64,000 nt of DNA from a candidate division WOR-3 bacterium UBA1063 (GCA_002316275.1 DCDE01000004.1:27434-91433), one strand, 5' to 3'; numbered from the stretch's first letter, positions 4,202 to 33,049 are shown. The notes: generated by a model from the sequence alone, not told the origin. Program-made: numbers and translations.

Positions 4202-6093
<1,892 letters not shown>

Positions 6094-6235: not shown

Positions 6236-6241
6236 TCCATT

Positions 6242-9176: not shown

Positions 9177-9178
9177 CC

Positions 9179-10803: not shown

Positions 10804-10845
10804 TATAATTATTAAACTTTTGTGTAGAATAAGCAAGGGGGAGTT

Positions 10846-11715: not shown

Positions 11716-12209
11716 TGCTATTCTTTTCGATGCTAATCGCTTTAGAGGTCGATACTATTGTACAGAAATTCCAGCAATACGACTTTAAAGTAGATTTTTA
11801 CGAAACTGTTTACTATAAAAACACGAATATTGTCGACACATTTCAAGGCACTATAAAGAAGGTATCCGACAAAATGGAAATGAATATCACTACTCCTTAT
11901 AAGGGAAAGTATGAAATCTTCGGTGATACACTACTTTCAATAGTAGATGGTGACTCCAGCTTCTTCCCACTTGAAGAGGACGCCACTAAACTCTTGGATT
12001 TCAGTTTTTTGGGAGATACAACATCCCTCATCATACAAATAGAGGGCAATAGGATGGAACTTAAGCCCAGAGGGGATTCTTGGTTTAACTACATTAAATT
12101 ACTCGAAAAAGAAGAACTGCCAGTGACACTGGAAGTAGATGATAATGAGAAGGTTACAAAATTTTACTTTAATAATTGGAGATTCTATGAAAGAAAAACT
12201 CGAAAGTAA
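11712..12209 (+). CDS. Hypothetical protein (N-terminal hydrophobic segment)
   Basis: 165 aa ORF. ATGA overlap with the sucD stop. No motif recognised. Confidence 0.4.
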
Positions 12210-12594
12210 CCAATTCTGCTTTGTATGTGGACAAGAAAACCCGAGGGGCCTTCGAGTAAAGATTCAAAGAAATAAAGATGAACGCTTCATAAGAATAGCT
12301 CTTGATAGTACTTTTGAAGGCTATAAGGGCGTTGTCCATGGAGGTATCCTCGTATCTCTTATGGACGAAGTAATGGCATATGCAGTGTCCGACGATAATT
12401 ACTGGGGCATTACTGCATCTCTTGAGGTAAAATTCAGAAAAGTAGTAAGCTCACAAAAAACCATCATAGTATCCGGTAAGGCTCTCGAGAAAAAGCGTTT
12501 ATGGGCAAAGGCAGAAGCCCGGATAAGATATGAGAACGAAGAGGACGTCTTAGCTGAAGCCGAAGGTTTATTCAAGTTAATTCCTAATAAGTGA
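12187..12594 (+). CDS. Hotdog-fold thioesterase (PaaI/YbgC-like) with N-terminal CxxC
   Basis: 'FCFVCGQENPRGL' followed by 'GVVHGGILVSLMDEVMAYA', a typical hotdog thioesterase core. Internal ATG at 12187 is preferred over the ORF-track start at 12139. Confidence 0.6.
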   Translation: MKEKLESNQFCFVCGQENPRGLRVKIQRNKDERFIRIALDSTFEGYKGVVHGGILVSLMDEVMAYAVSDDNYWGITASLEVKFRKVVSSQKTIIVSGKALEKKRLWAKAEARIRYENEEDVLAEAEGLFKLIPNK

Positions 12595-13000
12595 CCTCAT
12601 AGAAAATTAATTTTACCACTGACCTTTAACAAGAACGTTTCAGGGGAAATAGTTTATAGTCTCACATACTAGTAGAATTTGAAATCCAGTCTTTTTCAAA
12701 AATACAATATTTACCTTTCAAAAGCTACAGACCGCGGGTGTCTATAGGGGAAGGAATTCTATAATTTAACTTTCAAGCATTATAAACGCTGCCTTTATAG
12801 GTATTTAACTGCTGCAGAGCTACAAATATACCCATCAAACACAAAAATCTCTTAAATTCTCTATAATCTTCGTATCCAAAATCGATAGGATTTTAGAGAG
12901 TTCCCATAATTTAATCTTTAACCTGAAAAATCACCCTTCCACCTTTTCTGAACCTATCGGCTTTAATATTTAGGTCACACAACTATTCCGTTTATTCCCA

Positions 13001-13948
13001 TTACCAGATATTCAGGATTTGCCCTGATTCAAGAGTTATTCGTAGAAAGCTCCTGTGCTGCGAATCATCAAATTCGTATTTAACACCCTTAACATCTCCA
13101 ATATCAGTTTTATTTCCCAAAAAGTTACCATCTATAGGCCGATACTTTCTATCACCGCTATCATGCTGTATGCTTGAGATCTCAGTATCTAAAAGGAAAG
13201 TAACATTGGAATATACTGATGTTACACTAACGCTTCTTGTAGAATCGCGGTGGCATTCCACTGCCACTCGAACGGTATCACCATAAATCTGGTCTTCCGC
13301 CATCCTTACTACACCACCATCAATTGACCCGACAAAAGTAGGATCCATACTTTCGATTCCAGCAGAGAGGTATTGCGCAGCAACATCACTGGTCCGGGAA
13401 TTCAAAGATAGCACCGTCCCATCAATTTCAAAGTTTGAAGTATATAGTCTCTCTTGGTTCTTCTTGAGGTCTAAACTACCACTTATAATATGAAGATATT
13501 GTGAGATTTCCCTATAGCTATGTACACTCAAAATAAGATCCAACGTATCCGCACCATTAAGCCACTTCAAAGAGATTAGGGAATCGGATGGATAAATTTT
13601 GACCCAGCCTGAATCACTATAAAGATATTCACCAAATGAACTATAGCTATTAATGTACAAGTTCCCATAAACATAAACCGTGTTGATAAAAGGTGTAGGG
13701 TCTGTCGGATCTTGGACCCAAAATGCTTTATCAATACCGACAAGAATCGGTATTCCCTCGGGCTCGGGGAGCTGTGCAAGTTGAATCACTACCTCGTTGG
13801 AATCTAAATCCTTGTACAATTCACTGAGTTCCTGTACTGCTAACACTGCTTCATCTTCGTAAAGAAACGATATTTTTTTACAGGACAGAGAAATACACAA
13901 TACAACCAAAATTAATAGAATGCTACACTTCTTCATCTTCACCTCCAC
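13001..13948 (-). CDS. Hypothetical secreted protein
   Basis: 315 aa. N-terminal signal-like 'MKKCSILLILVVLCISLSC'. No recognisable domain. Lies 41 nt downstream of the cyclase-STAND gene on the same strand. Confidence 0.4.
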   Translation of the reverse strand: MEVKMKKCSILLILVVLCISLSCKKISFLYEDEAVLAVQELSELYKDLDSNEVVIQLAQLPEPEGIPILVGIDKAFWVQDPTDPTPFINTVYVYGNLYINSYSSFGEYLYSDSGWVKIYPSDSLISLKWLNGADTLDLILSVHSYREISQYLHIISGSLDLKKNQERLYTSNFEIDGTVLSLNSRTSDVAAQYLSAGIESMDPTFVGSIDGGVVRMAEDQIYGDTVRVAVECHRDSTRSVSVTSVYSNVTFLLDTEISSIQHDSGDRKYRPIDGNFLGNKTDIGDVKGVKYEFDDSQHRSFLRITLESGQILNIW

Positions 13949-13989: not shown

Positions 13990-16900
13990 TTAGTTAAAAG
14001 ATTGCAAAACGGCAAGCAACAAATGTGCACCGTGCTCCCTAAGCATACCAAACAGATATACGCGGCCCCTTGGATCCGAAATCCTTGGGAAGTTATCAAT
14101 ATCTATAATGAGTCTTAGGTTTTCTTCTTTAAGGAGCGAAGATAGGGAACTCATCCTTTCGCCACCAAGTATTAGGAATAACGTTAGCCAAGACAATCTT
14201 AGTTCTGGCGAGGATCTCTTGACACTATCAAACCATGCCGACAGCGTTTCGAGATCAGGATATGTAATCTGCATCCCGCAAAGGTACTGCACCAAACCTG
14301 CATTTATAAGACTCTCCACATTTCTCAACCCCGAATCCGAAAGTATCACAAATGCTCGGGATTCAATGATCATCTGCTTCGCACCCTCATAATCACCCAA
14401 CAACGCCTTTATTGCTGCTTGGTACACTCGTACTTGAAAGATCCTGCTCTTATTATCCAAACGGAAAAATATCTCTTCAACCCTTTTAAACACCTCTAAT
14501 GCAACGTTAAAATCCATCTTGCAGTATGCTAATACACCTTTGAGTAAATATAAAATCCCGAGCTTCGAAGGAGGTAAACCAGGAGATAATAAAAGTACTT
14601 CATCGAGAAGGTCTGCTACCTTCTCATAACCGTATAACTCAAGATAGATTCCAGCCAGGTTAATTGTTGTCTCGGCAAGATAGTCTGCTAATTTCAAATC
14701 TCTAAAAATTTTTCTTGCTTCTTCAAAGTGATGTCTCGCCTCATCGAGCTGCTGACGGTTTAAAAACACCCTTCCAAGATTATTCAGAGTGACCGCCAGT
14801 AAAAATCTACTTCCCGTCTTTTTCACAATGTCAAGAGCCTTTACCAAATGCTCCTCGGCAACTTCTAATTCCCATTTACTTAGGTAAATCTGACTCACAT
14901 TGATCAAGATTTTTGCTTGAGACACAAACTCCCCAATTTCTTCAAAAATCAATTTTGCCCTATCATAATAGGAAATTGCCTCACTAAGATTACCATTTAT
15001 TTGTTCTATATTGCCGAGAAGGTTAAAATCAGCGCCGAGAGTTTTCAAAGCATCACGTGAGCTAAGACCAAAACTTTCAATAGTTTTGATACTTAAATGG
15101 CCATAAGTAGCTGCATCTTTTAAATCATCCATCCTCCAGTATACCCACGCTTTCTTGTAGTTTGCATACGCTTTGATTTCTGGATCAGAGGATTCAGATG
15201 CACGGCAAAGATATCGAAAGGCTTCATCAAACTTTGATAACTTTTCATATATGCTAGACATCAATATCTCGTATCTCAGCTGAAGTATCGATCCATCTCC
15301 AAGAGCAGAAACATTTGAACTTAGGATATCCAGAGCGTCTTCGTACTCACCCATTCCTTCAAGGCATTGGGCAATTTTATAAGCCACCTCAGGATTTACC
15401 TTTAGGCTCCGGTAAGCTTGTAAAGCATAACTATAAAAACCCTTTGAAAACGCAACATCGCCAGCCATTTCGTAGTATTCAGTAGCCTTTTCGCCATTAT
15501 TAGATTTCTCAAAGTGTGACGCAGTCAGGAAGAGTAGATGCTCATCTTTTCCCTCTAACTTTTCAAACTCCACTGCCACAATACTATGGAGCCTCTCTTT
15601 CTCTTTTCTCGTTAAAAGGGAATATATAGCATCCTTTAGTAGTTCGTTTCTAAAAATGTATTCATAGTCTCCTGGGATATATGTGAATCCCTGAGAGATG
15701 ATAAATCCTTCCTTTTCTAACATATTTAGACTACTTTCTACACTTCTTTGTAAAACTTTTGCGAGAATATTCTTCCAGAAGTGATTTCCAATCACCGAGG
15801 CAGCTTTTATAAGATCTTTTTCATCCTCAGGAAGTCTATCTACAAACGCAACGAGTACGCTATTTATGCTTTCAGGCATTGAGAAATCTTCCGCCTTTAT
15901 CCTAAGAGGTCCATAAACAAGTAGGTCCCTCTCCCTAAGATAATAAACAAGTTCTTCGATAAAATATGGGTTACCGCGAGTTTTGGCCAAGAGCATGCTC
16001 AAAAATTCATCAGAAATTTCATCTGAATTACTTTGTAATACCGAGCGGCAGACCTCTTTTACGAATCCTTCTCCCATTCCTGTAAGTTCGATACTATAAT
16101 CAAAGTCAACCTCTTCTAAAAGCTCCCTCGAAATAAAAATAAAAATCAATGAACCAGCCCTTATTTCTTCTTTTAATCCTATAAAAAAGTTTTTCGACTC
16201 CCTGTCTACAAACTGAGCATCATCAAGAAATACAACTACACTTCCAAGGTCGCCAAGAGCTGCTTCAAAAATTCTCTGCATCTCCGTTTTAATTTCCCTA
16301 AGTACTTCAGTAGAAAAAAACAGATCTCCTTTAATAACACTTAAAATCTTTATAGATACCAATTCTGCATCATTCTTTGAGAAACCGTGCTTATTTTCAA
16401 GGTAATGGGCTACACTGGTAATGTCCAGTACTCCTGAAATTACTCGCCCTAAAATATCCTGCAAAATTTTCTCAACAGCATACATAGGAGTCTGTTTTAT
16501 GGAATCACACCTCAGATAAAAAGTCTTAATATCCGGAAATTCCGTTAGAATTCCACCCTTTAGTTCTGCACAAAAACGTGTCTTACCAATCCCAGCTTCA
16601 CCTACAACCCCTCCGATATGCACACCTGGTCTCTCGACACTACCCTTTATCCAGCCTAAAATACTCTCCATCTCCGCCTCTCGACCGGAGAAAGGGGTCT
16701 TGAATCTTCCTTGAATGAAGAACTCACTTTCCATAGATTTTTCACCCAGAACCTCAAAAAGATGGATTGGTTCTTCTCTACCCTTAACCCTTACGAGCCC
16801 AATTTCTTTGAAATAGAAATCCTGGAACGTCAGATTGACAAGGGATTCTGTGACATATATTTTCCCGGGTCCAGCAATCTCTTCTATTCTCTGAGCAACA

Positions 16901-17301
16901 TTCACAGTATCACCAAGCACCGTAGGTTTTTCTCCCGCAATTGAAGACCATAAAACCTCACCAGTGTTCACACCAATCCTCATTTTTATATTGACCCTTT
17001 CAATAGAATTCAGCTTTTCAAGGTATTTCTGCATGGCAATTGAAGTCAAAATAGCCCTTCTCGCATCATCACCGTAAGCAACTGGTGCACCAAATACTGC
17101 CATTACAGCATCCCCTATAAATTTGTCCAGATAACCACCATTTCTCTCTATAATTTCTTTAAACTCTTTGAAAATCTTATCAATTAATTCTTGAAGGTCC
17201 TCAGGATCAAGAAATTCGGAAAGGCTGGTAAAACCCTTAATATCACCAAAGATTACAGTTACACTTCTCCTTTCAGGCTTTATCAACTTGCTTGTATACA
17301 T
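13990..17301 (-). CDS. Class III adenylyl cyclase domain, STAND/AAA_16 ATPase, TPR-repeat signalling protein
   Basis: N-terminal 'VTVIFGDIKGFTSLSE', 'DKFIGDAVMAVFGAP' and 'GDTVNVAQRIEE' form a class III cyclase core. Walker A 'GEAGIGKT' and Walker B 'VVVFLDDAQ' are intact. About 600 C-terminal residues are TPR-like repeats. Confidence 0.8.
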   Translation of the reverse strand: MYTSKLIKPERRSVTVIFGDIKGFTSLSEFLDPEDLQELIDKIFKEFKEIIERNGGYLDKFIGDAVMAVFGAPVAYGDDARRAILTSIAMQKYLEKLNSIERVNIKMRIGVNTGEVLWSSIAGEKPTVLGDTVNVAQRIEEIAGPGKIYVTESLVNLTFQDFYFKEIGLVRVKGREEPIHLFEVLGEKSMESEFFIQGRFKTPFSGREAEMESILGWIKGSVERPGVHIGGVVGEAGIGKTRFCAELKGGILTEFPDIKTFYLRCDSIKQTPMYAVEKILQDILGRVISGVLDITSVAHYLENKHGFSKNDAELVSIKILSVIKGDLFFSTEVLREIKTEMQRIFEAALGDLGSVVVFLDDAQFVDRESKNFFIGLKEEIRAGSLIFIFISRELLEEVDFDYSIELTGMGEGFVKEVCRSVLQSNSDEISDEFLSMLLAKTRGNPYFIEELVYYLRERDLLVYGPLRIKAEDFSMPESINSVLVAFVDRLPEDEKDLIKAASVIGNHFWKNILAKVLQRSVESSLNMLEKEGFIISQGFTYIPGDYEYIFRNELLKDAIYSLLTRKEKERLHSIVAVEFEKLEGKDEHLLFLTASHFEKSNNGEKATEYYEMAGDVAFSKGFYSYALQAYRSLKVNPEVAYKIAQCLEGMGEYEDALDILSSNVSALGDGSILQLRYEILMSSIYEKLSKFDEAFRYLCRASESSDPEIKAYANYKKAWVYWRMDDLKDAATYGHLSIKTIESFGLSSRDALKTLGADFNLLGNIEQINGNLSEAISYYDRAKLIFEEIGEFVSQAKILINVSQIYLSKWELEVAEEHLVKALDIVKKTGSRFLLAVTLNNLGRVFLNRQQLDEARHHFEEARKIFRDLKLADYLAETTINLAGIYLELYGYEKVADLLDEVLLLSPGLPPSKLGILYLLKGVLAYCKMDFNVALEVFKRVEEIFFRLDNKSRIFQVRVYQAAIKALLGDYEGAKQMIIESRAFVILSDSGLRNVESLINAGLVQYLCGMQITYPDLETLSAWFDSVKRSSPELRLSWLTLFLILGGERMSSLSSLLKEENLRLIIDIDNFPRISDPRGRVYLFGMLREHGAHLLLAVLQSFN

Positions 17302-18479: not shown

Positions 18480-18589
18480 TTATATATTATAATGTGCCAA
18501 CAGCGAATTCTGGCCCAGGGAACTATCATCAGTCTAGCTTTTTAAACCATTTGCATTTTAACAAAGTCCCTTTTAAAATTATATTTGAG

Positions 18590-21500
18590 ATGAACGAAAT
18601 TCTTAAAGAACCTTTAACTCAACTTTATCACCATAACTATTTTATTATCCGTATTGAAGAAGAAGTATACAGAGCAAAGAGAAAAGGCCTTGGGCTCAGC
18701 CTGATCTTTATAGATATAGATTTTTTCAAGATGATAAACGATAACTTCGGGCATCAGGTAGGAGATGAAGTCCTCAAACAATTTTCAATGGATTTGAAAG
18801 ACACAGTGAGGGAATCCGATCTGATATTTAGGTATGGTGGAGATGAATTCACGATTATTTTACCCGAAGCCTCTATAGATGACGCAATTAAAATATCTCA
18901 GAGAATCAAAGGAACCGTTGAAAAACAAGGCTATGGCCCTTCGGGAAGCTTGAGAATCTCGTTGAGCGTAGGCATATCACAGTTCCCCATCGATAGTGTT
19001 AATCCGGCTGATTTGATACAAAAGGCCGATGAAAGAAACCTTATTAGCAAAAGAACTGGAAGAGGTAAAATAGTATATAAAGACAATGTAGTGGAAGAAT
19101 CGCAAACTATTTCTCTCTCTTCTGTGAGGATGGTCGGAAGAGAAAAAGAAATTAAGAGTTTTACGCAACTTTTAACTGAATTTGCCAACTCCGATCGCAG
19201 GTTTATTGCCATCTTGAATGGTGTGAAAGGGAGCGGAATTACAAGACTTATTGAGGAAATTTCGAACATTGCGGCTATTGTTAGAATCAAACCGATCAAT
19301 GTTACCCTCGTAGAGAAAGATCTTACAGACCGACTTGCGCTGGTAAGATCCATATTGAAGGAACTTTTGAAAGACGAAAAGGAAGAAGTCACTGGAGAAT
19401 ATGCAAATATTTTCGTTTATCCCCAAAAGGAAACACCCCGCGAAGATTTAACAGTAATTAGTAACGAACAAAAGTTAATTGATACTGTTTTAGAATTACT
19501 TTCTAAAAGGTCAAAAAATCAAAAAATACTTCTTACCATCAATAATGGGCAACTTATTTCTAAAGAAAGCATGCCTTTGCTCGTTCAGATATTACAATCC
19601 AGTAAGGCAAAAGATGCCTCTCTTATCATAGCTGAAAAAGGAAGAAATGGTTTTGAAAAGGAACTATCGTCACTTTCCGAGGTAATACATTATTTTGAAG
19701 TGTTACCACTAACAAGAGAAGAGGTAAAAACCCTACTGTGGCAAATATTGAGATCGGAGCCAGATGAAAACTTCCTGGATTGGATAATGGCACAAACCGC
19801 AGGGCGACCCTTGTACATTGATAAGATTTTAAACATCCTACTACTCTCAAATAAGCTTTCCCCAGCTGAAAACCACTGGATTTTGAGTGACGATTATTAT
19901 ATAGGAGTAGAAAATACCTTCCTACCGCTGGTTGAAGAGATATCAAGCCTCACACCGCAGGAGAGGGACGTGCTTGAAGTCTGTGCAGTATACAACATCA
20001 GTTTCTCTTGCTCGGTAATTGCGGCACTTACGGAGCTACCCGTTACTGAAATAGACGAGATTTTTAATAGCCTCTGTACAAAAGGATATTTAGAAGAGAT
20101 TATCCCATATAATCTCTATAGATTCCCCAACCAACTGATAAAAGAAATAGTCTATTTTCAAATCCCAAAAGAAAAACGCACAAAAATGCATTTTAAAATT
20201 GCACGCATGCTTGACAATAACCCTGAAGAAATATCAAGACTTAACCCTCAGATCCTATATGAACACTACGTAAATGGCGGTATGGAACATAAAGCAATTC
20301 CCCACATTGAGTCAATGATTAGAAATGCAATTAAAAAGAAGGAATTTAAAAAGGCGACTGAACTCATTCAGAGAATTTTTGAAATCGAAGATAATAAACT
20401 TCAAGTTTCTGAGCAGATCGGCCTTTTAAGGGAACTTGGAATGTGTTTAAAAAATGTTGGAGACTTTGACTCAAGTTTTGCAAAGTTGAAACAAGCACTT
20501 GAACTTGCACAAAAGCACGGAGAAAAATATGAAGAAGCCCTCGTGAGGCTTGAAATGACGAGGATCCAATACACTAACCGAGATGAACATGAATTTCTTA
20601 CAAACATTGAACAAATTCAACAGATTGGAAGTCAACTGAATGACCACAGAATCCTTGCAAAAGCTCTTGTGGATAAAGCTTTATATTATTATGATTTTGA
20701 AAAAAAACCAACTAAAGCTATACTGACTCTCGATGAAGCTCTGGATCTTTTAAAAGAAGAAGAAGACCATGAATTGCTTACAAGAATCTATGGGAATTTA
20801 GGGAATTTTTATGCGCACCTAAAACAATATCAGAAGGCAAAGGAAAACTTTGAGATTGCCCTTTATCATGCAAGAATCTGCAACAATCCGGATTACATCT
20901 GCACAATAATGCTCAACTACGGTGTAATCCAATCTATTTTGGAGGATTTAGAAAACAGCAGGAAAACTTTAGAAAAAACCCTGGAATTCGCGAAGAGAGA
21001 GAATATAATGTACCTGATGCCCCATCTATATTCAAATCTGGCAATGATATATGTCAACTACGGAGAGTATTCAATTGCAATCAAATACATGGAAAAAACT
21101 ATAGATTACGCAAAGGAAATGGACCTCAAAGCAGATGTCACTACTTATGAAACATACCTTTACGGAATCAGGTCATATCTGGGTGACCAAGAGTACTACA
21201 CTTCAAAACTTGAGGAAATTGTTGAAAAAGAGTTACATAACACCGAGGCTTGGGAAAGGGCTAATTGCTACCTTATAAATAACTATTCTTTCCTGGGGAA
21301 ATTATCAAACCTGGAAAAAATCTATAAGAATATGTCCAATTTTAGGAACCTTATGCTAAAAAATGCTGCCGAGATTACATTGTACGAAAACATTATCATC
21401 TTCTCAAAAGAAAGTAAAAAACTTATAGACTTCATTAAACAGAAGGAAAAAGAATCAATTACCAAAGCCGATTCCATAGGCAAAGTCAACTCTGGCACAG

Positions 21501-21934
21501 TACTTTACTTATATCATTCTATTACTGGCGAACCCACAGACGTAACACTTGATGAAGTACTTGAGCTCTCAAAGAATGCAATGGATATAAAATCATATAT
21601 CGACGTACTTTTGTATGATCAAATCCTCGGGACACTAAACCCAAAACTCTTAGAAGAACTCAAAAACCAATCAATACACTTTAACCTTAAACAGAAGCTT
21701 CTCTTTTACGTCGTGGAGCTCAGGGTAGAACTAGCAAGTGGGGAAACAGAAAACGCTCATGAAAAAATCGAAGAGCTTGAAAGGAAACTTATAGATCATA
21801 AAGCGATACTCGTATTAACGTTTCTCTACAGGATGGGAATCAACTTCTTTAAAGAGGTAGATCCTCAGTTTGCCACATTACTGGGAGAAAAACTAAACCT
21901 TCTCCTCACGGATGCATTCAGCTCGTACTTTTAA
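18590..21934 (+). CDS. GGDEF diguanylate cyclase domain, degenerate STAND/AAA_16 ATPase, TPR-repeat signalling protein
   Basis: 'RESDLIFRYGGDEF' has an intact A-site and an RxxD I-site. The AAA_16-like region has 'GVKGSGIT' (Walker A Lys replaced by Ile) and 'ILLTINNGQ' (Walker B DD replaced by NN). Long TPR-like C-terminus. First ATG at 18590 chosen over the ORF-track start at 18494. Confidence 0.8.
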   Translation: MNEILKEPLTQLYHHNYFIIRIEEEVYRAKRKGLGLSLIFIDIDFFKMINDNFGHQVGDEVLKQFSMDLKDTVRESDLIFRYGGDEFTIILPEASIDDAIKISQRIKGTVEKQGYGPSGSLRISLSVGISQFPIDSVNPADLIQKADERNLISKRTGRGKIVYKDNVVEESQTISLSSVRMVGREKEIKSFTQLLTEFANSDRRFIAILNGVKGSGITRLIEEISNIAAIVRIKPINVTLVEKDLTDRLALVRSILKELLKDEKEEVTGEYANIFVYPQKETPREDLTVISNEQKLIDTVLELLSKRSKNQKILLTINNGQLISKESMPLLVQILQSSKAKDASLIIAEKGRNGFEKELSSLSEVIHYFEVLPLTREEVKTLLWQILRSEPDENFLDWIMAQTAGRPLYIDKILNILLLSNKLSPAENHWILSDDYYIGVENTFLPLVEEISSLTPQERDVLEVCAVYNISFSCSVIAALTELPVTEIDEIFNSLCTKGYLEEIIPYNLYRFPNQLIKEIVYFQIPKEKRTKMHFKIARMLDNNPEEISRLNPQILYEHYVNGGMEHKAIPHIESMIRNAIKKKEFKKATELIQRIFEIEDNKLQVSEQIGLLRELGMCLKNVGDFDSSFAKLKQALELAQKHGEKYEEALVRLEMTRIQYTNRDEHEFLTNIEQIQQIGSQLNDHRILAKALVDKALYYYDFEKKPTKAILTLDEALDLLKEEEDHELLTRIYGNLGNFYAHLKQYQKAKENFEIALYHARICNNPDYICTIMLNYGVIQSILEDLENSRKTLEKTLEFAKRENIMYLMPHLYSNLAMIYVNYGEYSIAIKYMEKTIDYAKEMDLKADVTTYETYLYGIRSYLGDQEYYTSKLEEIVEKELHNTEAWERANCYLINNYSFLGKLSNLEKIYKNMSNFRNLMLKNAAEITLYENIIIFSKESKKLIDFIKQKEKESITKADSIGKVNSGTVLYLYHSITGEPTDVTLDEVLELSKNAMDIKSYIDVLLYDQILGTLNPKLLEELKNQSIHFNLKQKLLFYVVELRVELASGETENAHEKIEELERKLIDHKAILVLTFLYRMGINFFKEVDPQFATLLGEKLNLLLTDAFSSYF

Positions 21935-22334
21935 CCTCAAATCTGAAAAACAGATTTCTCAGCTTTTTATCAAACACTCCGAGGAGTAAAAAGTATAACA
22001 TCATAAGTAAAAATCCCACAATTGCCTTGACAATCTCATTCAATTTAAAAAATTGACCGAGATAATAGCCCAGAATAAACATAGCAATTGGTATTATGAA
22101 AATTAATGCCGACGACAGCACAATTCCCCATGTACTCTCTTCAATAGTAACAACGTCAGCGACCTTGAGATTATTTCCGCTAACCTCAACCACATCCTCA
22201 CCTTTATTTTTCATACCCATAGTACAAAATTTCGAGAGGGAACAGGACGAGCACGAACTCTCATCTCTTAATACCTTAACGAGGTATCTCCCCTCTCCGA
22301 CTTCAGAAAGAACAATTCCTTTTATTTCTGCCAT
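21918..22334 (-). CDS. rseC: RseC/MucC family protein (Rnf-associated, SoxR-reducing-system-like)
   Basis: 138 aa. N-terminal 'CSSCSLSKFC' cysteine cluster followed by two TM helices. Lies immediately downstream of rnfB. Confidence 0.55.
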   Translation of the reverse strand: MAEIKGIVLSEVGEGRYLVKVLRDESSCSSCSLSKFCTMGMKNKGEDVVEVSGNNLKVADVVTIEESTWGIVLSSALIFIIPIAMFILGYYLGQFFKLNEIVKAIVGFLLMMLYFLLLGVFDKKLRNLFFRFEVKSTS

Positions 22335-22336: not shown

Positions 22337-23164
22337 TTAAACTGTTTTAACCTCTGCGAACTTCTCATCCAATGCAATGGCTTTTGTGGGACAGACTCCC
22401 ACTACTTTATCAGCAACTTCGTCAACTTTCTCGGCATCAACAATTATAACTAAGTTCTTTTCGAGTTTCATAGCACCTTCCGGAGCTTGCTTTACACAAA
22501 GGCCACAGCCAATACACGCCACTTTACAATAGCTCTTTGCTACAGGTCCTCTATCCAGGTTCTTGCAAAAGACAAACACCTTTCTATCTAAAGGTACTAA
22601 CTCAATAAGATCATGGGGGCATGCTTCCACGCACTTTCCGCAGGCAGTGCACTTTTCATTGATTATGTGCGGTAAGCCATCGTCTCCCATAAACATTGCC
22701 CCAAATTGACATACATTTACACAATCACCAAATCCAAGACATCCATAGACACAACCTCTATCGCCTTTTAGTGTGAAATCCGCAACCCTGCAAGACTTAA
22801 CCCCATCGTAATCAGACCTTCTAACAGCATTTTCCTTAGTTCCGTTACACATTACCTTTGCCACTCTTTTCACTATACTCACCGTATCAAGACCAATAAT
22901 GTGAGCAACTTTATCTGCAACTTCCTGACCCCCTGGGCCACACTTTGCGGCATTAGTTTCCTTGCCACCCGCAAGAGCTTCGGCGTATCCCACACAACCA
23001 GAGTATCCACATGCACCACAATTTGCTCCGGGGAGCGCCTCAAGAAGCATTTCTACTCTTGGATCTTCCTGGACGTAAAACTTCTTAAAAGAAATCATGA
23101 GGAAAAGCCCGGAAAGAAGCCCAAGCGCTAGAGTCAAAAGCAGACTTATAATTATTGTATTCAT
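22337..23164 (-). CDS. rnfB: Rnf complex subunit B (polyferredoxin)
   Basis: 'LPGANCGACGYSGC' RnfB signature plus several CxxCxxCxxxCP ferredoxin motifs. ATG at 23164 is chosen. The ORF-track start at 23239 is a TTG inside rnfA. Confidence 0.8.
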   Translation of the reverse strand: MNTIIISLLLTLALGLLSGLFLMISFKKFYVQEDPRVEMLLEALPGANCGACGYSGCVGYAEALAGGKETNAAKCGPGGQEVADKVAHIIGLDTVSIVKRVAKVMCNGTKENAVRRSDYDGVKSCRVADFTLKGDRGCVYGCLGFGDCVNVCQFGAMFMGDDGLPHIINEKCTACGKCVEACPHDLIELVPLDRKVFVFCKNLDRGPVAKSYCKVACIGCGLCVKQAPEGAMKLEKNLVIIVDAEKVDEVADKVVGVCPTKAIALDEKFAEVKTV

Positions 23165-23180
23165 ATTTTCATTGCCTCCA

Positions 23181-23762
23181 TTATTGCAAAGATATGATAC
23201 CAGAAAAGCCCATAAAAGCAAATGCCATGAGTCCAGCAATTATAAGCGTGATTGGGGCACCTTTTAGGGCTTTGGGTACATCCCTCACTTCCAGTTCTTC
23301 TCTGATACCTGAAATAAGTAGTAAAGCAATTGTGAAACCTACTCCAGCACCAAAGCCAAAGAAGGTGTTTTCAATCAAATTATAATTTCTCATTGCGCCA
23401 AGCAGTGCGAGCCCAAGTACAATGCAGTTTGTCGTAATCAATGGCAAAAAGATCCCGAGGGCTTTGTATAGTGAAGGAGAAGTCTTCTTAATAACCATTT
23501 CAACGAATTGAACAAGTACTGCAATTACAAATATAAAAACGATCATCTGCAAAAACTCAAGGTGAAGTGGCCTTAAGATAAGGTGGTCAACCAAATTGGT
23601 GATAATAGCAGTCATAGTCATAACAAAGGTAGCCGCAAAACCCATACCAATAGCAGAGGAAACCCTTGCCGAAACCCCAAGAAAAGGACAAAGACCAAGA
23701 AAATAGGTTAAAATGAAATTATTCGTTATTGCTGCAGCTACAAAAATAATTAGAGGTCTCAT
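23181..23762 (-). CDS. rnfA: Rnf complex subunit A
   Basis: 193 aa polytopic membrane protein in the RnfA/RnfE/NqrDE family. Operon position after rnfE. Confidence 0.85.
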   Translation of the reverse strand: MRPLIIFVAAAITNNFILTYFLGLCPFLGVSARVSSAIGMGFAATFVMTMTAIITNLVDHLILRPLHLEFLQMIVFIFVIAVLVQFVEMVIKKTSPSLYKALGIFLPLITTNCIVLGLALLGAMRNYNLIENTFFGFGAGVGFTIALLLISGIREELEVRDVPKALKGAPITLIIAGLMAFAFMGFSGIISLQ

Positions 23763-24382
23763 AATTTTTTCTCCTCACTCTTTCTTGTAATAAAGTTCAT
23801 AAAACCGATCAGCATCGCAAGAGTAAGAAAAGCCCCCGGTGGAAGTATCATCACCAGAATTGGCTTAAACCACGAGCCAAATATTTTCACTCCAAAAATG
23901 GAGCCAAACCCTAAAATTTCTCGTATAATCCCCATCAATAAAATGGTGATAATGTAACCTGTACCCATACCAATGGCATCAAGAATGGATGGCAAGAGTT
24001 TGTTCTTCTTCGTGAACGCTTCTTGCCTCGCCAGAATTATACAATTAACAACAATAAGTGGAATATACGCACCTAGTGCCTTTGAAATATCAGGGAATTT
24101 AGCTTTGAGAAATAGATCTGCAACAGTAACAAAAGTAGCAATTACAACTATGTAAGCAGGAATTCTTACCTCATTTGGGATTAAATCCTTTATAAGCCCG
24201 ATAACCAAAGACGAAAAAAACAAGACAAAAAGTACTGAAACCCCCATAGAAATACTGTTTACAACCGTATTAGACACTGCTAATACTGAACAGATACCGA
24301 GGAGCTGGACAAGAACGGGATTCTCCTTAAAAAACCCCTTTACTAACTCATAGCCTGGCTTTCTGCTATTCTGTGCCATCAC
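23759..24382 (-). CDS. rnfE: Rnf complex subunit E
   Basis: 207 aa membrane protein paralogous to RnfA. ATGA overlap with rnfG. Confidence 0.85.
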   Translation of the reverse strand: MMAQNSRKPGYELVKGFFKENPVLVQLLGICSVLAVSNTVVNSISMGVSVLFVLFFSSLVIGLIKDLIPNEVRIPAYIVVIATFVTVADLFLKAKFPDISKALGAYIPLIVVNCIILARQEAFTKKNKLLPSILDAIGMGTGYIITILLMGIIREILGFGSIFGVKIFGSWFKPILVMILPPGAFLTLAMLIGFMNFITRKSEEKKL

Positions 24383-25344
24383 TTAAGCTCCTTTTTAAGG
24401 GCCTCAAATCCTTTATTTACTGCAGATACTACGCCATCTTCAATTATAGTTGCACCTGTAACAACCTCTACATTACTTGAACTTAATGGCAGAGACTCCC
24501 CTATCAATCTCTTTTGCAACTCATCGAGTTTCTCCTTATCAACCGACACTTCTGATCCATTCATAATAACGATGTCTTCAATCTTTGAAAAGTTTTTGCT
24601 CACAGTCATAAAGATCTTAACCGTATCTCCGCCTTCAACCCCTTCAGAAAAAATCCCGTAACTGATGCTCTGACCCGATTTATCGTTAATCACGTAATAT
24701 GTACCTTTCTTAATAAGCCTCTTCTCAGGCCATCGCTTCTCAAAGTACTCGAGAATCTCCTCTTCGCCTCTTCCAGCACTTTCCCCTCCACCACCGCTTC
24801 CAAGATATGTCTCGAGCGCCTTATGAGCATTATTTACAATATTTGCGACAGATTTAGAAGAAATTGTTGCCCCGGTTATTGCTTCTATCTGGGATCTATT
24901 TTGCGGCTTTTGCCCTTTCAAAACTTCAATAGGCGGTATTGCTCCTTCAAACTGCTTCTTAAACCAGTCTTCTATTATTCTATTACCAAGGCCCGGCGTC
25001 TCAACGTTCTCAAGAACCTCAATACCAAGAACAGCACTAGCATCTTTATCAAATCCTACCATTAATTTTATGTCACCCTGAAATCCACCACCTGTGATCA
25101 TTACGCCATATCCTATTACATTACCGTTACTATCCTTAGCCTTCAGCACTGAGGTCTTTTCATCAAGCGCAATATTTTCATAGCTCTCTACCCCTTCAAC
25201 TACCGAAAGGAGCGCGGTTCTCATAGAATTCTCAAGATTTCTTTGAATGTCATCCTGCGTTGAAACATAAGTATATGCAAGGAGGCAGCCTGCTATAGTT
25301 ATTATCAAAGTTAATACAATTACCATTCTGAATTCGTTTTTCAT
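24379..25344 (-). CDS. rnfG: Rnf complex subunit G with two FMN-binding motifs
   Basis: N-terminal TM anchor. FMN_bind-like motifs 'IEAITGATISSKSV' and 'VEVVTGATIIEDGV', separated by a Gly-rich linker. 321 aa. Confidence 0.75.
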   Translation of the reverse strand: MKNEFRMVIVLTLIITIAGCLLAYTYVSTQDDIQRNLENSMRTALLSVVEGVESYENIALDEKTSVLKAKDSNGNVIGYGVMITGGGFQGDIKLMVGFDKDASAVLGIEVLENVETPGLGNRIIEDWFKKQFEGAIPPIEVLKGQKPQNRSQIEAITGATISSKSVANIVNNAHKALETYLGSGGGGESAGRGEEEILEYFEKRWPEKRLIKKGTYYVINDKSGQSISYGIFSEGVEGGDTVKIFMTVSKNFSKIEDIVIMNGSEVSVDKEKLDELQKRLIGESLPLSSSNVEVVTGATIIEDGVVSAVNKGFEALKKELK

Positions 25345-25347
25345 TTT

Positions 25348-26298
25348 TTAAACCTCCCCGAGAACTCTTGGCTTCGTCAGCCTGTCAATCCAGGGTCTTA
25401 TACTGTTCACTATAAGTATGCTAAACATTACACCCTCGGGGTATCCTGCAAACAACCTTATTAAAACTACAAGAAATCCTCCAAGAATGCCATAAATTAC
25501 ACGTCCCTTACGAGTAATTGGTGATGTAACCATATCTGTAATCATGTAAAATGCACCGAGCATTAATCCACCAGCAAGAATGTGAAAGAGGGGATCTGGG
25601 TATTTTGATGGGTTTATAAGCCACATAATTCCACCAAAACAAAATACAGAAGCAATATAAGAGAGGGGCAATCTGAAATCCACATATCCCTTTAAAATTA
25701 ACACAAGACCACCAAGAATAATGAGGAGCGCGGAGGTCTCACCCATAGAACCAGCTACATTTCCAAAGAATAAATCTTTGTAAGGCGTAAGAACCTTTTC
25801 AAACTTGAAGTTTGCAAGGGGAGTAGCACCCGTGAAAGTATCTGGGCTCATGAATCTTGTGGGAGACCACGTAGTAGCATCAACAGGAAATGCAGCCATA
25901 AGGAAAGCCCTTCCTACAAGTGCAGGATTGAATATGTTTTGCCCGATCCCTCCAAAGAATTGTTTCGCAAATACTATAGCAAAAGCCGCCCCAAGGGCCG
26001 CCTCCCATAAAGGAAAACGTGGTGGCAAAGTCAAAGCGAGAAGAATCCCTGTAACTACTGCACTCCCATCAAGGCATTGAGAGACATCCCTTCCTCTTAG
26101 CTTCAGTAATATGCATTCTGCTACAACTGCAGTAAATGCACTAACGAGCATAACAAGGAGAGGATAGAGCCCGAAAAAATAAACCGCACTAGCAGCAGGA
26201 AACGCAAGTGATAGAACGGTAAACCACATAACCTTCTTTACACTTTCTTCGCTTCGAATGTGTGGTGATACCGATAATACAAGATTTTTCTCGTTCAT
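25348..26298 (-). CDS. rnfD: Rnf complex subunit D
   Basis: Polytopic NqrB/RnfD family. Start moved to Met14 (26298), which gives an ATGA overlap with the rnfC stop and a 'gaggagg' SD. Confidence 0.85.
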   Translation of the reverse strand: MNEKNLVLSVSPHIRSEESVKKVMWFTVLSLAFPAASAVYFFGLYPLLVMLVSAFTAVVAECILLKLRGRDVSQCLDGSAVVTGILLALTLPPRFPLWEAALGAAFAIVFAKQFFGGIGQNIFNPALVGRAFLMAAFPVDATTWSPTRFMSPDTFTGATPLANFKFEKVLTPYKDLFFGNVAGSMGETSALLIILGGLVLILKGYVDFRLPLSYIASVFCFGGIMWLINPSKYPDPLFHILAGGLMLGAFYMITDMVTSPITRKGRVIYGILGGFLVVLIRLFAGYPEGVMFSILIVNSIRPWIDRLTKPRVLGEV

Positions 26299-27611
26299 GA
26301 GGACCTCCTCAATTCCTGCTTTCCAAACTTGACCCACTGCACATGATTTATCTTAGAAGGGCAAACAAAAGCACAACATCCACATTCCATGCAATCTGAG
26401 AGACCATATTTTTCCTTTGCCTCTGTAAACCTACCTGCCTTAATATAGTCAACAAGCATAAGGGGCAAGAGACCCATGGGACAGACATCAACACATTTTG
26501 AGCATCTTATGCAAGTATACTCCTCAAATCTCCTTGCAGTCTTTTGCGTAAAGAGTAATATTCCAGATGTACCCTTTATAACAGGAACCTCGAGGGTATA
26601 TTGGGAGATGCCCATCATGGGCCCTCCATTTATTACCTTTATTACATCATCACTCATATCTCCTGTCATCTCAACCACATCCAGGAAGCGTGTCCCAATC
26701 CTTACCAAGTAGTTTCCCGCTCCTCTTGCTCCATCTCCAGACAATGTAAGAACCCTTTCAATGAGGGGCTTGCCAAATCTCACTGCTTCATAGATAGCAA
26801 CCGCTGTTTGAACGTTCTGGACGAGGCAGTTCACATCCATAGGGAGCCCACCTCTTGGAACCTCTCTATCCGTTAGAGCTTTTATAAGCTGCTTCTCAGC
26901 ACCTTCAGGGTACTTTGTTTTCACAACTTTAAGCTCAAATGAAGGAAATTCCTTAATTACATCGCTCACCTTTCCTATAGCTAAAGGTTTATTATCCTCA
27001 ACCGCAATAAATACTCTACTAGCACCTACAGCTCTTTTAATTAGGAAAGCACCCCAGAGGACATCTTTCGCCCTTTCCTGCAATATCCTATCATCAGCAG
27101 TGAGAAACGGCTCACATTCCGCTCCATTTATGATCACCGTATCTATTGATTTATCTTTTGGAGGAGAGATCTTCACATGAGTTGGAAATGCAGCTCCTCC
27201 AAGACCAACAACACCAGCTTCCTTAACAGCATTGACGATCTCTTCGGGGCTTGATTCCTGCCAGTTAACCCTTTCTAAAGGTTCTTCAAACCACTCATCC
27301 TTCCCATCAGGTTCAATTACAATTGCAAAATCAGACATAAGAAGAACAGGATGAGGGTGATCAATTATGGTTCTCACCTTTCCAGATGTAGGAGCATGGA
27401 TACAGGCAGAGATGTAACCATCGGCATCAGCAATTTTCTGTCCCTTTTTAACCTCGTCTCCCCTTTTCACAAGTGGTTTTGCAGGTTTTCCAGTATGTTG
27501 GCTAAGAGGAACGTAGAGAGTAGCTGGTACAGGGAGCTTCTCAATTCCCTTACCTGTGGTATACTTACAATATGGTGGGTGAACGCCGCCTTTAAAAGTG
27601 CTCTTTGCCAT
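26295..27611 (-). CDS. rnfC: Rnf complex subunit C (NADH-binding, 2x[4Fe-4S])
   Basis: 438 aa. 'CIRCSKCVDVCP' and 'CMECGCCAFVCP' ferredoxin motifs. RnfC N-terminal 'GGVHPP'. Confidence 0.85.
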   Translation of the reverse strand: MAKSTFKGGVHPPYCKYTTGKGIEKLPVPATLYVPLSQHTGKPAKPLVKRGDEVKKGQKIADADGYISACIHAPTSGKVRTIIDHPHPVLLMSDFAIVIEPDGKDEWFEEPLERVNWQESSPEEIVNAVKEAGVVGLGGAAFPTHVKISPPKDKSIDTVIINGAECEPFLTADDRILQERAKDVLWGAFLIKRAVGASRVFIAVEDNKPLAIGKVSDVIKEFPSFELKVVKTKYPEGAEKQLIKALTDREVPRGGLPMDVNCLVQNVQTAVAIYEAVRFGKPLIERVLTLSGDGARGAGNYLVRIGTRFLDVVEMTGDMSDDVIKVINGGPMMGISQYTLEVPVIKGTSGILLFTQKTARRFEEYTCIRCSKCVDVCPMGLLPLMLVDYIKAGRFTEAKEKYGLSDCMECGCCAFVCPSKINHVQWVKFGKQELRRSS

Positions 27612-27631
27612 TATAAAGGACTCCTTTTAGC

Positions 27632-28231
27632 CTACTTAAACTCTCTTCCAAACCTAAAAGCCATTAAATTTGCTTCAATAGTATGCTTCTTAAAACTTTC
27701 TGTGATTACTTTCTCCCACACAATCGGCTCAAAAGGCAGGTAATTTGACATTGCCCCAAGAAGCACCGTATTGGCAGTCCTTGCATCTCCTGTCCTATTT
27801 GCAATGTCAGTTGCCGGGATAAGCAGTACCTCAGCCCTTACTTTTTCCTCAATCGATTTTACAATATCCCTCGGGTACGTATCAAGCCCTATAGAAACCG
27901 TGGTAGGAATAAGCTCTAAATCATTAATAATAACCTTGGCACCTTCCACCTTAAGGTAGTGAATCCACCTGAGGGCTTCAGACTTTTCAAAAGAGAGAAT
28001 GAGGTCACAAGTCCCCATTTCAACAAGAGGAGAATATACCTTACGTCCAAATCTCACGTGGCTCACGACACTACCACCTCTCTGTGACATTCCATGAACT
28101 TCACTCTTTTTAGTATCTAATCCAGATGCCATAGCAACCTTTGAGAGAAGCTCTGAAGCAGTTAATATACCCTGCCCACCAACTCCCGAAATTATTACAT
28201 TGAAAACTTTATCCATTTCAGCCTCCTTCAA
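27632..28231 (-). CDS. iorB: Indolepyruvate:ferredoxin oxidoreductase beta subunit
   Basis: 'NVIISGVGGQGILTASELL' is a 2-oxoacid:Fd oxidoreductase gamma-type motif. ATGA overlap with iorA. Confidence 0.7.
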   Translation of the reverse strand: MKEAEMDKVFNVIISGVGGQGILTASELLSKVAMASGLDTKKSEVHGMSQRGGSVVSHVRFGRKVYSPLVEMGTCDLILSFEKSEALRWIHYLKVEGAKVIINDLELIPTTVSIGLDTYPRDIVKSIEEKVRAEVLLIPATDIANRTGDARTANTVLLGAMSNYLPFEPIVWEKVITESFKKHTIEANLMAFRFGREFK

Positions 28232-29973
28232 GAAATTGCCTTAAAGGGGCAAACCTGTATGCATAAGTCGCAACCCACACAGAGGAGATCTGAAATTGAA
28301 GCTTTGCCATTCTTTATACTGATCGCAGGACATCCAAGCTTAACGCACCCCAAACACTTTTCACCTTTGCATATATCTACATTTACTTTCCTTTTTGGTC
28401 TCTCTGCTTGCTTTTTTCGTTCTTCGGGCAGCAGTGCACAAGCTCTTCTTGATATGATAACCGCAGGTTCATCGAGTTCCATTACTTCTTTTAAGACCTC
28501 ACGGGTGGCCCTCAACTCATGGGGATCCACTTCATATACTTTCTCAATACCACAAGCCTTAACAATATCTTTAAAGTTTACAGCTTTTGTAACTTCTCCC
28601 TTTGCTGTTTTACCTGTTCCAGGGTGATCTTGGTGCCCTGTCATCGCTGTAATACGATTATCGAGTATTATTATTTTGGTAATCCCTTTGTTATATACGA
28701 TATCTATAAGCCCAGTAATTCCTGAATGGAGGAAAGTTGAATCACCTACAACACCGAATACCTTTTTTGAAAACTCTTTACCACGTGCAAGTTGAAAACC
28801 AAAAGCATTGGTAATCCCCGCTCCCATACATATTGTTGTATCAATAGATTCATACGGGGCAAGTGCACCCAGGGTATAACAACCGATATCTCCTGTGACC
28901 GTCGCCTTCAATCTCCAAAGATTGTAAAAGACACCGGTATGAGGACAACCTGCACAAAATACCGGAGGTCTCATTACCGACTTAATTGGTTCAGGATGAG
29001 GCAGTTCCTCATTGAGTACTCCTTTCCTGACAACCTCTGGAGAAAGCTCATCACAGAAGGGGATGTACTTCTTCCCCTCCACTTCAGTATATCCTAAAGT
29101 CTTTATCTCTTCTTCAAGAAAGGGTTCGTTCTCTTCAATTACTATTACCCTTTGAACCATAGATGCAAACTTTTTAAAAAGATCTTCGGGGAATGGAAAT
29201 GCCATACCCAGTTTCAAAAAGGTTGCATGCGGAAAAACTTCTTTCGCATATTGGTATGAGATACCGCTGGTTACTATCCCAAGGGACCTATCCCCTTCTT
29301 CTATTCTATTGAGCGGTGAAGTAGATGAAAATTCTTTAAGCTTCTTCAACCTCTCCTCAACCACGTAATGCCTCGCCTTTGCATTGGCAGGAAGGGTAAC
29401 AAACTTTCTAAAATTCTTAACATAATCTTTAATTCCAACCTCTTTTCGTTCTCCAAGTTCCACCATGGTTTTTGAATGCGAGATCCGCGTGGTCATTCTG
29501 AATAGGACCGGAGTATCAAACATCTCAGAAATATTGAAGGCTTCCTTCAGGTAATCTTTAGACTCCTGGGAATCTGAAGGTTCCACCAGTGGAAGTTTTG
29601 CAAATTTAGCATATCTTCTATTGTCTTGCTCATTTTGGGAAGAGTGCATGCCAGGGTCGTCACAGGTTACAATTACAAAACCAGCATTTATTCCTGTATA
29701 AGCTGAAGTGAACATGGGATCCGCTGCAACGTTTAGACCGACGTGCTTCATCGAGGTCATACTTCTTGCACCCGCTATCGCTGCGCCCAGGGCTACTTCT
29801 AAGGCAACTTTTTCATTGGTTGACCACTCTGCATATACCTCATCGTACTTGACTAAATTCTCGAGAATCTCAGTAGAAGGCGTTCCTGGGTACGCTGTGG
29901 CCACCTTGACACCAGCCTCCCACGCACCTCTGGCAGCAGCCTCATTGCCAGATAGCAACACTTTATTTGACAT
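28228..29973 (-). CDS. iorA: Indolepyruvate:ferredoxin oxidoreductase alpha subunit (TPP, 2x[4Fe-4S])
   Basis: 581 aa. N-terminal 'LLSGNEAAARGAWEAGVKVATAYPGTPSTEI', 'GDIGCYTLG', and C-terminal 'CLGCVKLGCPAI...CVGCDLCIQVCP'. Confidence 0.75.
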   Translation of the reverse strand: MSNKVLLSGNEAAARGAWEAGVKVATAYPGTPSTEILENLVKYDEVYAEWSTNEKVALEVALGAAIAGARSMTSMKHVGLNVAADPMFTSAYTGINAGFVIVTCDDPGMHSSQNEQDNRRYAKFAKLPLVEPSDSQESKDYLKEAFNISEMFDTPVLFRMTTRISHSKTMVELGERKEVGIKDYVKNFRKFVTLPANAKARHYVVEERLKKLKEFSSTSPLNRIEEGDRSLGIVTSGISYQYAKEVFPHATFLKLGMAFPFPEDLFKKFASMVQRVIVIEENEPFLEEEIKTLGYTEVEGKKYIPFCDELSPEVVRKGVLNEELPHPEPIKSVMRPPVFCAGCPHTGVFYNLWRLKATVTGDIGCYTLGALAPYESIDTTICMGAGITNAFGFQLARGKEFSKKVFGVVGDSTFLHSGITGLIDIVYNKGITKIIILDNRITAMTGHQDHPGTGKTAKGEVTKAVNFKDIVKACGIEKVYEVDPHELRATREVLKEVMELDEPAVIISRRACALLPEERKKQAERPKRKVNVDICKGEKCLGCVKLGCPAISIKNGKASISDLLCVGCDLCIQVCPFKAIS

Positions 29974-30023
29974 AGAAACCTCCAGAATGCGTTAACAAAC
30001 AAACTACTGAAAACCCTTTATGT

Positions 30024-30076
30024 GAATAAAAAAAGAAAGCAAAATGCAAAGAGCTAAGCAAACTAGCCCTTTGCAT
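30024..30076 (-). terminator. Rho-independent terminator after rplQ (end of the alpha operon)
   Basis: Perfect 10-bp inverted repeat aaatgcaaag (30041-30050) / ctttgcattt (30067-30076) with a 16-nt loop, spanning the rplQ stop codon. Followed on the minus strand by 'uuucuuuuuuuauu'. Confidence 0.5.
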
Positions 30077-30449: not shown

Positions 30450-30463
30450 TCTAATCCTCCCTA

Positions 30464-31480: not shown

Positions 31481-31488
31481 ATTTTACC

Positions 31489-32118: not shown

Positions 32119-32123
32119 TGGTA

Positions 32124-32534: not shown

Positions 32535-32549
32535 ACAAATAGTCCTCCC

Positions 32550-32927: not shown

Positions 32928-32935
32928 TTCCCCTC

Positions 32936-33049
32936 CTAACCCTGCCTCTGCTTATGTTTAGGATTCTCACAAATGACCATAACCCTGCCTTTTCTCTTAA
33001 CAATTTTACATTTACTACAAATTTTCTTCACTGAAGACCTAACTTTCAT
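32936..33049 (-). CDS. rpmJ: 50S ribosomal protein L36 (zinc type)
   Basis: Not in the ORF track (37 aa). Hand translation gives [37 protein letters not shown]. Confidence 0.8.

Follow-up and report, generated by a model that had tools for sequence, protein, structure and literature searches.

A 64,000-nucleotide stretch of DNA from the candidate division WOR-3 bacterium UBA1063 (GCA_002316275.1 DCDE01000004.1:27434-91433), hereafter called the window, contains at 18590..21934 on the plus strand a gene whose product joins a GGDEF domain, a STAND nucleotide-binding oligomerisation (NOD) module, and tetratricopeptide repeats (TPR) in one protein. An earlier reading of the same stretch, made from its letters alone (the sequence-only reading), had proposed that this protein combines an intact diguanylate cyclase head with an ATPase P-loop that looks dead. 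The features of the gene on which the present analysis is based were as follows, with positions counted from the first letter of the window.

18590..21934, plus strand: GGDEF–STAND(NOD)–TPR gene, 1114 aa plus stop, from the open reading frame (ORF), its translation, and Pfam/NCBIfam domains
18611..19066, plus strand: GGDEF diguanylate cyclase domain, residues 8-159 (PF00990, TIGR00254)
18809..18850, plus strand: inhibitory site (I-site) RESD, spacer LIFRY, and active-site GGDEF, residues 74-87 (regular expression match)
19130..20269, plus strand: STAND nucleotide-binding oligomerisation module with nucleotide-binding domain (NBD), helical domain (HD), and winged-helix domain (WHD), residues about 181-560
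19220..19243, plus strand: degenerate Walker A (P-loop) GVKGSGIT, residues 211-218, with Ile217 at the Lys position
19526..19552, plus strand: degenerate Walker B ILLTINNGQ, residues 313-321, with N318 and N319 in place of D/E and D
19802..19825, plus strand: GxP motif (G405, P407) and the helix with K412, a position occupied by Glu in 164/177 family members
20270..21931, plus strand: TPR arm and sensor region, residues 561-1114, all-helical

The longest ORF of the gene starts at a GTG at 18494, upstream of the ATG at 18590. The ATG start was matched by the N-termini of seven orthologues, which share the pattern M-[EP]-E-(L/I/G)-x-L-x-DPLT, and the NCBI models of the protein, at 1114 aa, agreed with it. 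The 32 residues that are added by the GTG start (18494..18589) had no counterpart in any orthologue. The true start of the gene is thus likely to be the ATG at 18590; the GTG start has been used by the gene callers of several metagenome sources, giving a protein of 1146 aa (for example P0001). Promoter, terminator, and Rfam scans returned nothing informative close to the gene. At its other end, the gene runs convergently into an RseC/MucC-like gene (21918..22334, minus strand), the two 3' ends sharing 17 nt (21918..21934). The RseC/MucC-like gene heads into the Rnf cluster, and the overlap recurs in the orthologous loci.

The AlphaFold2 (AF2) model of the protein had a mean predicted local distance difference test score (pLDDT) of 85, with most of the NOD at 80-90 and the helical repeats of the TPR region at about 90. 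In Pfam, the TPR region was matched by TPR_12 (E 2.7e-17) and TPR_MalT (E 2.3e-11), with repeats from about residue 600.

The N-terminal domain was assigned as GGDEF. PF00990 matched with an E-value of 3.7e-37 over profile positions 5-160 of 161, TIGR00254 with 4.7e-44 (150 bits, the cut-off being 37.4), and the NCBIfam PleD model with 1.9e-40 over residues 5-164. When this domain of the AF2 model was searched with Foldseek, diguanylate cyclase crystal structures were obtained as whole-domain matches at a root-mean-square deviation of 1.4-2.5 Å. Diguanylate cyclases work as dimers and are inhibited at the I-site by their product cyclic di-GMP (c-di-GMP), and the canonical I-site is an RxxD placed five residues before GGDEF (PMC4933438). 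Here, RESD occupies residues 74-77 and GGDEF residues 83-87, and five residues separate D77 from G83. The arrangement RESD-LIFRY-GGDEF with its canonical spacing, as pointed out in the sequence-only reading, is therefore intact, and GGDEF and RESD were kept in all clade loci examined, with the spacer varying only once (LIFRY or LLFRY). None of the sequence hallmarks of an active cyclase under product inhibition is missing from the predicted head.

The module that follows was matched by Pfam AAA_16 at residues 181-341 with an E-value of 1e-6 and 29.8 bits, under the cut-off of 32.6. The best PDB match of the AF2 model in Foldseek was 6mfv_A (PH0952, a STAND-TPR protein; E 1.2e-12). A profile made from the NOD of the GGDEF clade was aligned by hhalign with a profile of the STAND module of a class III adenylate cyclase clade, a member of which is encoded nearby in the window, at a probability of 98.5% (E 2e-15). 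When PDB chains were searched by sequence with the NOD, either as a single sequence or as a five-sequence profile, chance matches alone were obtained; the basis for assigning the module to STAND is accordingly Pfam, hhalign, and Foldseek.

The nucleotide site of this module is degenerate in both catalytic motifs. In the alignment to the AAA_16 profile, Ile217 fell on the Walker A Lys and N318/N319 on the Walker B acids. The same placement was obtained by MAFFT with 13 homologues and by hhalign, in which I217 was paired with K240 and N318/N319 with D360/D361 of the cyclase, and the secondary structure of the AF2 model was in agreement, with a strand at 206-211, a glycine-rich loop, a helix from 217, and a strand at 312-318 ending in NN. 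Four alignments (AAA_16, MAFFT, hhalign, and AF2) thus bore out the substitution of the invariant Lys by Ile that had been read in GVKGSGIT. A profile alignment that puts another, intact GxxxxGK[ST] at the true Walker A position had been named as the finding that would overturn this reading; no GK[ST] was found anywhere in the whole protein. The W-x-D that the family carries after Walker B was also lost in the clade. What was kept in the clade comprised the three P-loop glycines, T/S218, R219, R184, G405/P407 of the GxP motif, F512, H534, and H559. In STAND proteins, the P-loop, the GxP motif, and the WHD histidine hold ADP, and the GxP motif takes part in adenine binding and P-loop packing (PMC6468293). 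As both motifs by which a STAND NTPase is defined, Walker A and Walker B, are degenerate, the protein is best described as a putative STAND-derived pseudo-NTPase of the MalT-like/AAA_16 branch.

The age and spread of the substitution were examined. A HMMER search with the NOD over 1.84 billion representatives returned 6513 relatives. Family counts for each column refer to NOD modules that align over the site, taken from the 150 best-scoring representatives together with matches found earlier. Orthologues with 45-60% identity were collected from the protein database, GTDB genomes, and JGI metagenomes, and removal of near-identical copies left eight species-level lineages, all belonging to Candidatus Hydrothermia/WOR-3. 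The P-loop conformed to G-[VLM]-[KR]-G-x-G-[IL]-[TS] in 8/8 lineages, which encode it with differing codons. Outside the clade, the Lys column held K in 69/71 aligned family modules, the exceptions being P0187 (Ser) and one misaligned module. GK[ST] was present in all 17 other representatives in which the NOD is immediately preceded by a GGDEF domain, and the nearest outgroup, P0135 (27% identity), carries intact GDRGCGKT and VDDAH motifs. The pattern of K against I/L is far beyond what chance would produce. Because nearly all of the family modules, the 17 other GGDEF–NOD representatives, and the outgroup P0135 keep the Lys, its loss in this set of sequences is a derived, single event on the stem of a Candidatus Hydrothermia/WOR-3 lineage. 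An error or a decaying gene does not account for this state, which is conserved across eight lineages and under the purifying selection described below.

The changes were not confined to the lysine. NOD columns were ranked on family conservation and the clade residues were then compared, which gave the following positions.

Position 212 (P-loop position 2): E/D in 58/71 family modules; V/M/L in the clade
Position 213 (P-loop position 3): mostly A/P/V in the family; K/R in the clade
Position 217: K in the family; I/L in the clade
Position 319: D in 108/128 family modules; N in the clade
Position 322: W in 105/128 family modules; L in the clade
Position 324: D in 117/128 family modules; T/A/Q/S in the clade
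Position 412 (helix after GxP): E in 164/177 family modules; K/R in the clade
Position 469: G in 163/177 family modules; N in the clade

Each replacement residue was fixed or nearly so within the clade. Because these other family-conserved residues have also been exchanged for clade-fixed ones, the pocket looks remodelled rather than decayed. Two further candidates were discarded: the WHD histidine (position 514, H in 133/177) does not discriminate, since the degenerate clade and the intact cyclase both have Asn there, and the Sensor-I Arg (R/Q/K at 352 in the clade) shows a family conservation of only 44%.

The two asparagines of Walker B differ in their value as evidence. At position 318, D/E was found in 125/127 family modules and Asp in the seven other lineages, and N occurred in the species of the window alone; among the listed members of its 90% cluster, INN was present in all 14 whose sequence spans Walker B. 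N319 is common to all orthologues, and N likewise occupies this position in roughly one of every two GGDEF–NOD relatives whose P-loop is intact; the second N therefore carries little weight on its own. Thus, the statement that NN stands in place of the acidic pair was correct for both residues, whereas the second of them is less telling than had been supposed. A Walker B with [DE]N for [DE]D and the Lys intact was seen in P0009, P0011, P0137, P0138, P0146, P0151, P0152, P0177, and P0181. This GGDEF–NOD–TPR subfamily may bind ATP and hydrolyse it slowly, and if so, the loss of the second acid would have preceded the loss of the lysine. Separately, P0187 (1202 aa, NOD from residue 335), which belongs to the same NOD family, has the P-loop AETGMGSS, with Ser for Lys, and a Walker B with DN; it looks like a second, independent degenerate site.

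The degenerate NBD showed no relaxation relative to its intact counterpart. In the single usable comparison (L002 versus L011/L013, dS about 0.5), the ratio of nonsynonymous to synonymous substitution rates (dN/dS) was 0.139 for the degenerate NBD and 0.129 for the intact cyclase NBD of the same genome pair, and was 0.075 for the GGDEF domain and 0.10-0.16 for the TPR region; in the other lineage pairs, dS was saturated, or near zero where the sequences were near-identical. Mean pairwise identity over the same five genomes was 0.38 for both the degenerate NBD and the intact cyclase NBD. By these estimates, the degenerate NBD is under purifying selection and is not relaxing. Purifying selection on the NOD and the TPR argues that both would still regulate.

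These results lead us to consider it reasonably probable that the protein is a diguanylate cyclase of effector–NOD–TPR design in which a conserved pseudo-NTPase NOD serves as a nucleotide-independent scaffold or conformational switch. From the motifs that are missing, we infer that the NOD no longer hydrolyses ATP, and it very probably stands outside the ADP/ATP exchange cycle. At rest, STAND proteins are closed monomers with ADP bound, and this ADP connects the P-loop with the GxP motif and the WHD (PMC6468293). In the proposed mechanism, the NOD would instead be held by protein–protein contacts, with no ATP cycle, and the absence of the nucleotide may be made up for structurally by K/R213 and K/R412, the clade-fixed basic residues. 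The TPR sensor would bind a putative ligand or partner protein, this binding would relieve autoinhibition, and the NODs would then associate. Their association would pair two N-terminal GGDEF domains, as is needed to join two GTP, and c-di-GMP bound at the RESD I-site would cap the output. Repression of a GGDEF enzyme by a TPR domain has a precedent in RcbB (PMC12282931).

Several observations weigh against this interpretation. The AAA_16 score lies below the Pfam gathering threshold. In characterised STAND proteins such as MalT, it is the ATP-bound open form that multimerises. The Mg ligand T/S218, the P-loop glycines, R219, and the GxP motif are all retained, so that some phosphate-bearing ligand could still bind, and the first Walker B Asp is retained in 7/8 lineages. 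Furthermore, the dN/dS values come from one usable genome comparison.

The retained residues also fit a different view of the pocket, according to which the NOD would still bind an anionic ligand, nucleotide or other (ATP/ADP, GTP, c-di-GMP, or cyclic AMP (cAMP)), without Mg2+ and would act as a non-hydrolysing sensor. The ligand would be bound by the retained glycine-rich loop, T/S218, R219, and GxP and by the new basic residues K/R213 and K/R412. Such a pocket would agree with substitutions that are conserved and not drifting, with a net gain of about five positive charge units alongside the loss of the Mg-ligating acids, and with the invariance of the P-loop glycines, T/S218, R219, and GxP; K or R at P-loop position 3 is already present in the nearest intact outgroup, P0135, and c-di-GMP effector sites include the Walker A regions of other ATPases (PMC12282931). 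However, P-loop NTPases nearly always need the Lys for tight nucleotide binding, the retention of the glycines and GxP may reflect NBD–HD packing only (PMC6468293), and the placement of K213 and K412 near the pocket is itself inferred only. On balance, we regard a remodelled binding pocket as unlikely. Its more specific form, in which the acid-to-hydrophobic change at 212, K/R213, the exchange of K217 for I/L, the loss of three acids after Walker B, and the exchange of E412 for K/R would together make a repurposed, strongly basic, Mg-independent site that senses a cyclic nucleotide (c-di-GMP, or cAMP from the neighbouring cyclase) and gates the STAND switch, is in our estimation highly improbable. 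If it were true, the protein would represent a second-messenger-gated STAND switch and a direct relay from cAMP to c-di-GMP. Another view, that a NOD without an ADP lock would be permanently open or oligomeric, leaving a constitutive cyclase limited by I-site inhibition and expression level, could draw on the finding that ADP stabilises the closed resting form of STAND proteins through contacts with the NBD, HD, and WHD (PMC6468293), and on the strict conservation of the I-site. Against it, autoinhibitory NBD–arm and NBD–sensor contacts exist independently of nucleotide (PMC6468293), and the NOD and about 550 TPR residues are under selection like that on the intact neighbour (dN/dS 0.10-0.16). 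Because about 900 regulatory residues are under purifying selection, a constitutive enzyme appears less likely than a regulated one, and we hold it to be very unlikely.

A further alternative involves the adenylate cyclase encoded on the other strand, to which the sequence-only reading had attached the GGDEF protein as a paralogue next door. The features between and around the two genes were as follows.

13990..17301, minus strand: class III cyclase–STAND–TPR gene, 1103 aa, class III cyclase–AAA_16–TPR
16579-16602, minus strand: cyclase Walker A GEAGIGKT, residues 234-241, intact
16213-16239, minus strand: cyclase Walker B VVVFLDDAQ, residues 355-363, intact
17325-17684, plus strand: ORF for the C-terminal half of TauE, 119 aa (Pfam)
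17674-18219, minus strand: PAP2 phosphatase (Pfam)
18216-18479, minus strand: PF1765-like gene (Pfam)

The canonical motifs GEAGIGKT and VVVFLDDAQ that had been attributed to the cyclase were both found; GKT and DD were invariant in five aligned orthologues, and in further clade loci GKT was kept in all and DD in most. It has been shown for the plant pairs RGA4/RGA5 and RRS1/RPS4 that only the P-loop of the helper is needed (PMC9528088). By analogy, the degenerate GGDEF protein might hetero-oligomerise with the intact cyclase, which would supply ATP-driven oligomerisation, so that the outputs of cAMP and c-di-GMP would be coupled. The two proteins share a cyclase–NOD–TPR layout, and their genes are divergent and adjacent in 13/13 clade loci read, with the contrast between a live and a dead site strict at every one of them. 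That contrast stood as the earlier reading had drawn it, whereas the functional sensor/helper pair derived from it fared poorly. The NODs of the two proteins are only about 20% identical, and the cyclase NOD ranked 159/161 by similarity to the NOD of the GGDEF protein, after proteins of unrelated organisms; by these measures, the two NODs come from separate family branches and did not arise by a recent duplication. About 1.3 kb and three unrelated genes lie between the divergent genes, so that there is no shared promoter region. The notion that the GGDEF protein needs the cyclase is opposed by the sister-group cyclases P0294 and P0296 (35-36% identity), which have no GGDEF-STAND gene within 8 kb, and likewise the intact-P-loop GGDEF-STAND relative P0009 has no cyclase neighbour. 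Synteny was also tried as support for a functional pair and was rejected. In all genomes that carry the gene, a block of more than 20 kb is collinear throughout, with TldD, NAD synthesis, and succinyl-CoA ligase, then the cyclase and GGDEF genes, then RseC/Rnf, pyruvate/2-oxoacid:ferredoxin oxidoreductase (POR), and L17/rpoA/S4; because of this collinearity, the adjacency of the cyclase and GGDEF genes is not independent evidence of linkage. The adjacency that survives a deeper split is that of the cyclase with a lipoprotein-like ORF of about 315 aa, and not that of the cyclase with the GGDEF gene. A required partnership is accordingly judged quite unlikely; the adenylate cyclase most probably signals on its own and has the same general design.

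The 315-aa ORF (13001..13948, minus strand) follows the cyclase gene after 41 nt in the same orientation and has a lipoprotein-like N-terminus, MKKCSILLILVVLCISLSCKK. It gave no match in Pfam and none in PADLOC. Its homologues at 11276..12259 (minus strand) of L018 and 11288..12262 (minus strand) of L019, with 24-27% identity and E-values of 1e-17 and 3e-15, flank the sister-group cyclases of those lineages convergently and are followed by a Tricorn-like protease. In the interval between the cyclase and GGDEF genes, the 119-aa TauE/SafE ORF matched only the C-terminal half of its profile (127-237 of 237); it was called in L001, L004, and L017 and not in L002 or L005, and it could represent either a transporter of half size or a remnant.

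By collinearity with annotated orthologous loci, 22337..64000 and 1..12600 are the core-genome flanks of the block, one with Rnf, POR, rpoA, and ribosomal genes and the other with NAD biosynthesis and TldD. Two large ORFs were located at 49031..57239 and five tRNA genes at 2314, 4047, 4125, 60369, and 60493. A reading of the gene as part of a defence system was considered and rejected in this core-genome context, in which Rnf, POR, rpoA, and ribosomal genes surround it: PADLOC returned for the GGDEF–STAND protein only a generic TPR model (E 3e-5), and for the cyclase only a generic class III cyclase similarity to PycC. Within ±10 kb of the gene in four orthologous loci, no MoxR or vWA family was found.

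The general view of STAND/NOD switches is that they need ADP/ATP exchange, and the present protein carries a naturally occurring, long-conserved NOD that is Lys-less and yet under selection, joined to an apparently active enzyme. It is therefore a potential simple bacterial model for nucleotide-free NOD function, and the same question arises for plant sensor receptors of the nucleotide-binding, leucine-rich repeat type (NLRs) and for certain Avs proteins that act against phages. Limits to the practical impact are set by the narrow clade, one uncultured lineage, and by the existence of precedents for the concept. For annotation pipelines, it is relevant that the database labels of these proteins are 'diguanylate cyclase' or 'tetratricopeptide repeat protein', which leave the ATPase degeneracy unflagged. 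A literature search for GGDEF–STAND–TPR proteins or nucleotide-independent STANDs found no paper on the architecture, most matches containing only the word 'standard'.

The protein was compared with several known systems. With PleD and WspR it shares the RxxD five residues ahead of GG[DE]EF, and its GGDEF domain matches the PleD structure 9g85. Those enzymes become active when phosphorylation drives their N-terminal receiver domains to dimerise, whereas here the GGDEF domain comes first in the chain and the regulatory modules follow on its C-terminal side. The STAND-TPR proteins of the PH0952 type show the same NBD–HD–WHD–arm–TPR organisation; however, they have an intact P-loop that binds ADP/ATP and DNA-binding effectors, in contrast to the GGDEF effector and the missing Lys and acids of the present protein. 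Plant paired NLRs (RRS1/RPS4 and RGA5/RGA4) likewise consist of two divergent, side-by-side STAND genes of which one P-loop is needed (PMC9528088). The plant pairs have a shared promoter region and demonstrated heterocomplexes, whereas the genes described here are separated by three others and encode distantly related NODs.

Inactive STAND modules are already known from the iSTAND of MoxR–vWA ternary systems (PMC7159879) and from KpAvs8, which has degenerate Walker motifs (bioRxiv 2026.01.04.697583). In both, as here, a STAND module without catalytic motifs is retained within a signalling protein. Those precedents act in conflict or defence, alongside MoxR/vWA partners or nuclease effectors, whereas the present gene lies in a core-genome block and its effector is a second-messenger cyclase; none of the precedents is fused to a diguanylate cyclase or stands in a housekeeping context. 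The metagenomic GGDEF–STAND(AAA_16)–TPR proteins with an intact P-loop (P0135, P0009, and P0138 among them) were the best non-orthologous matches of the NOD and have the same domain order at about 1050-1150 aa. These relatives keep GK[ST] (all 17 representatives), W-x-D, and Glu412, and share only 19-27% identity with the protein of the window.

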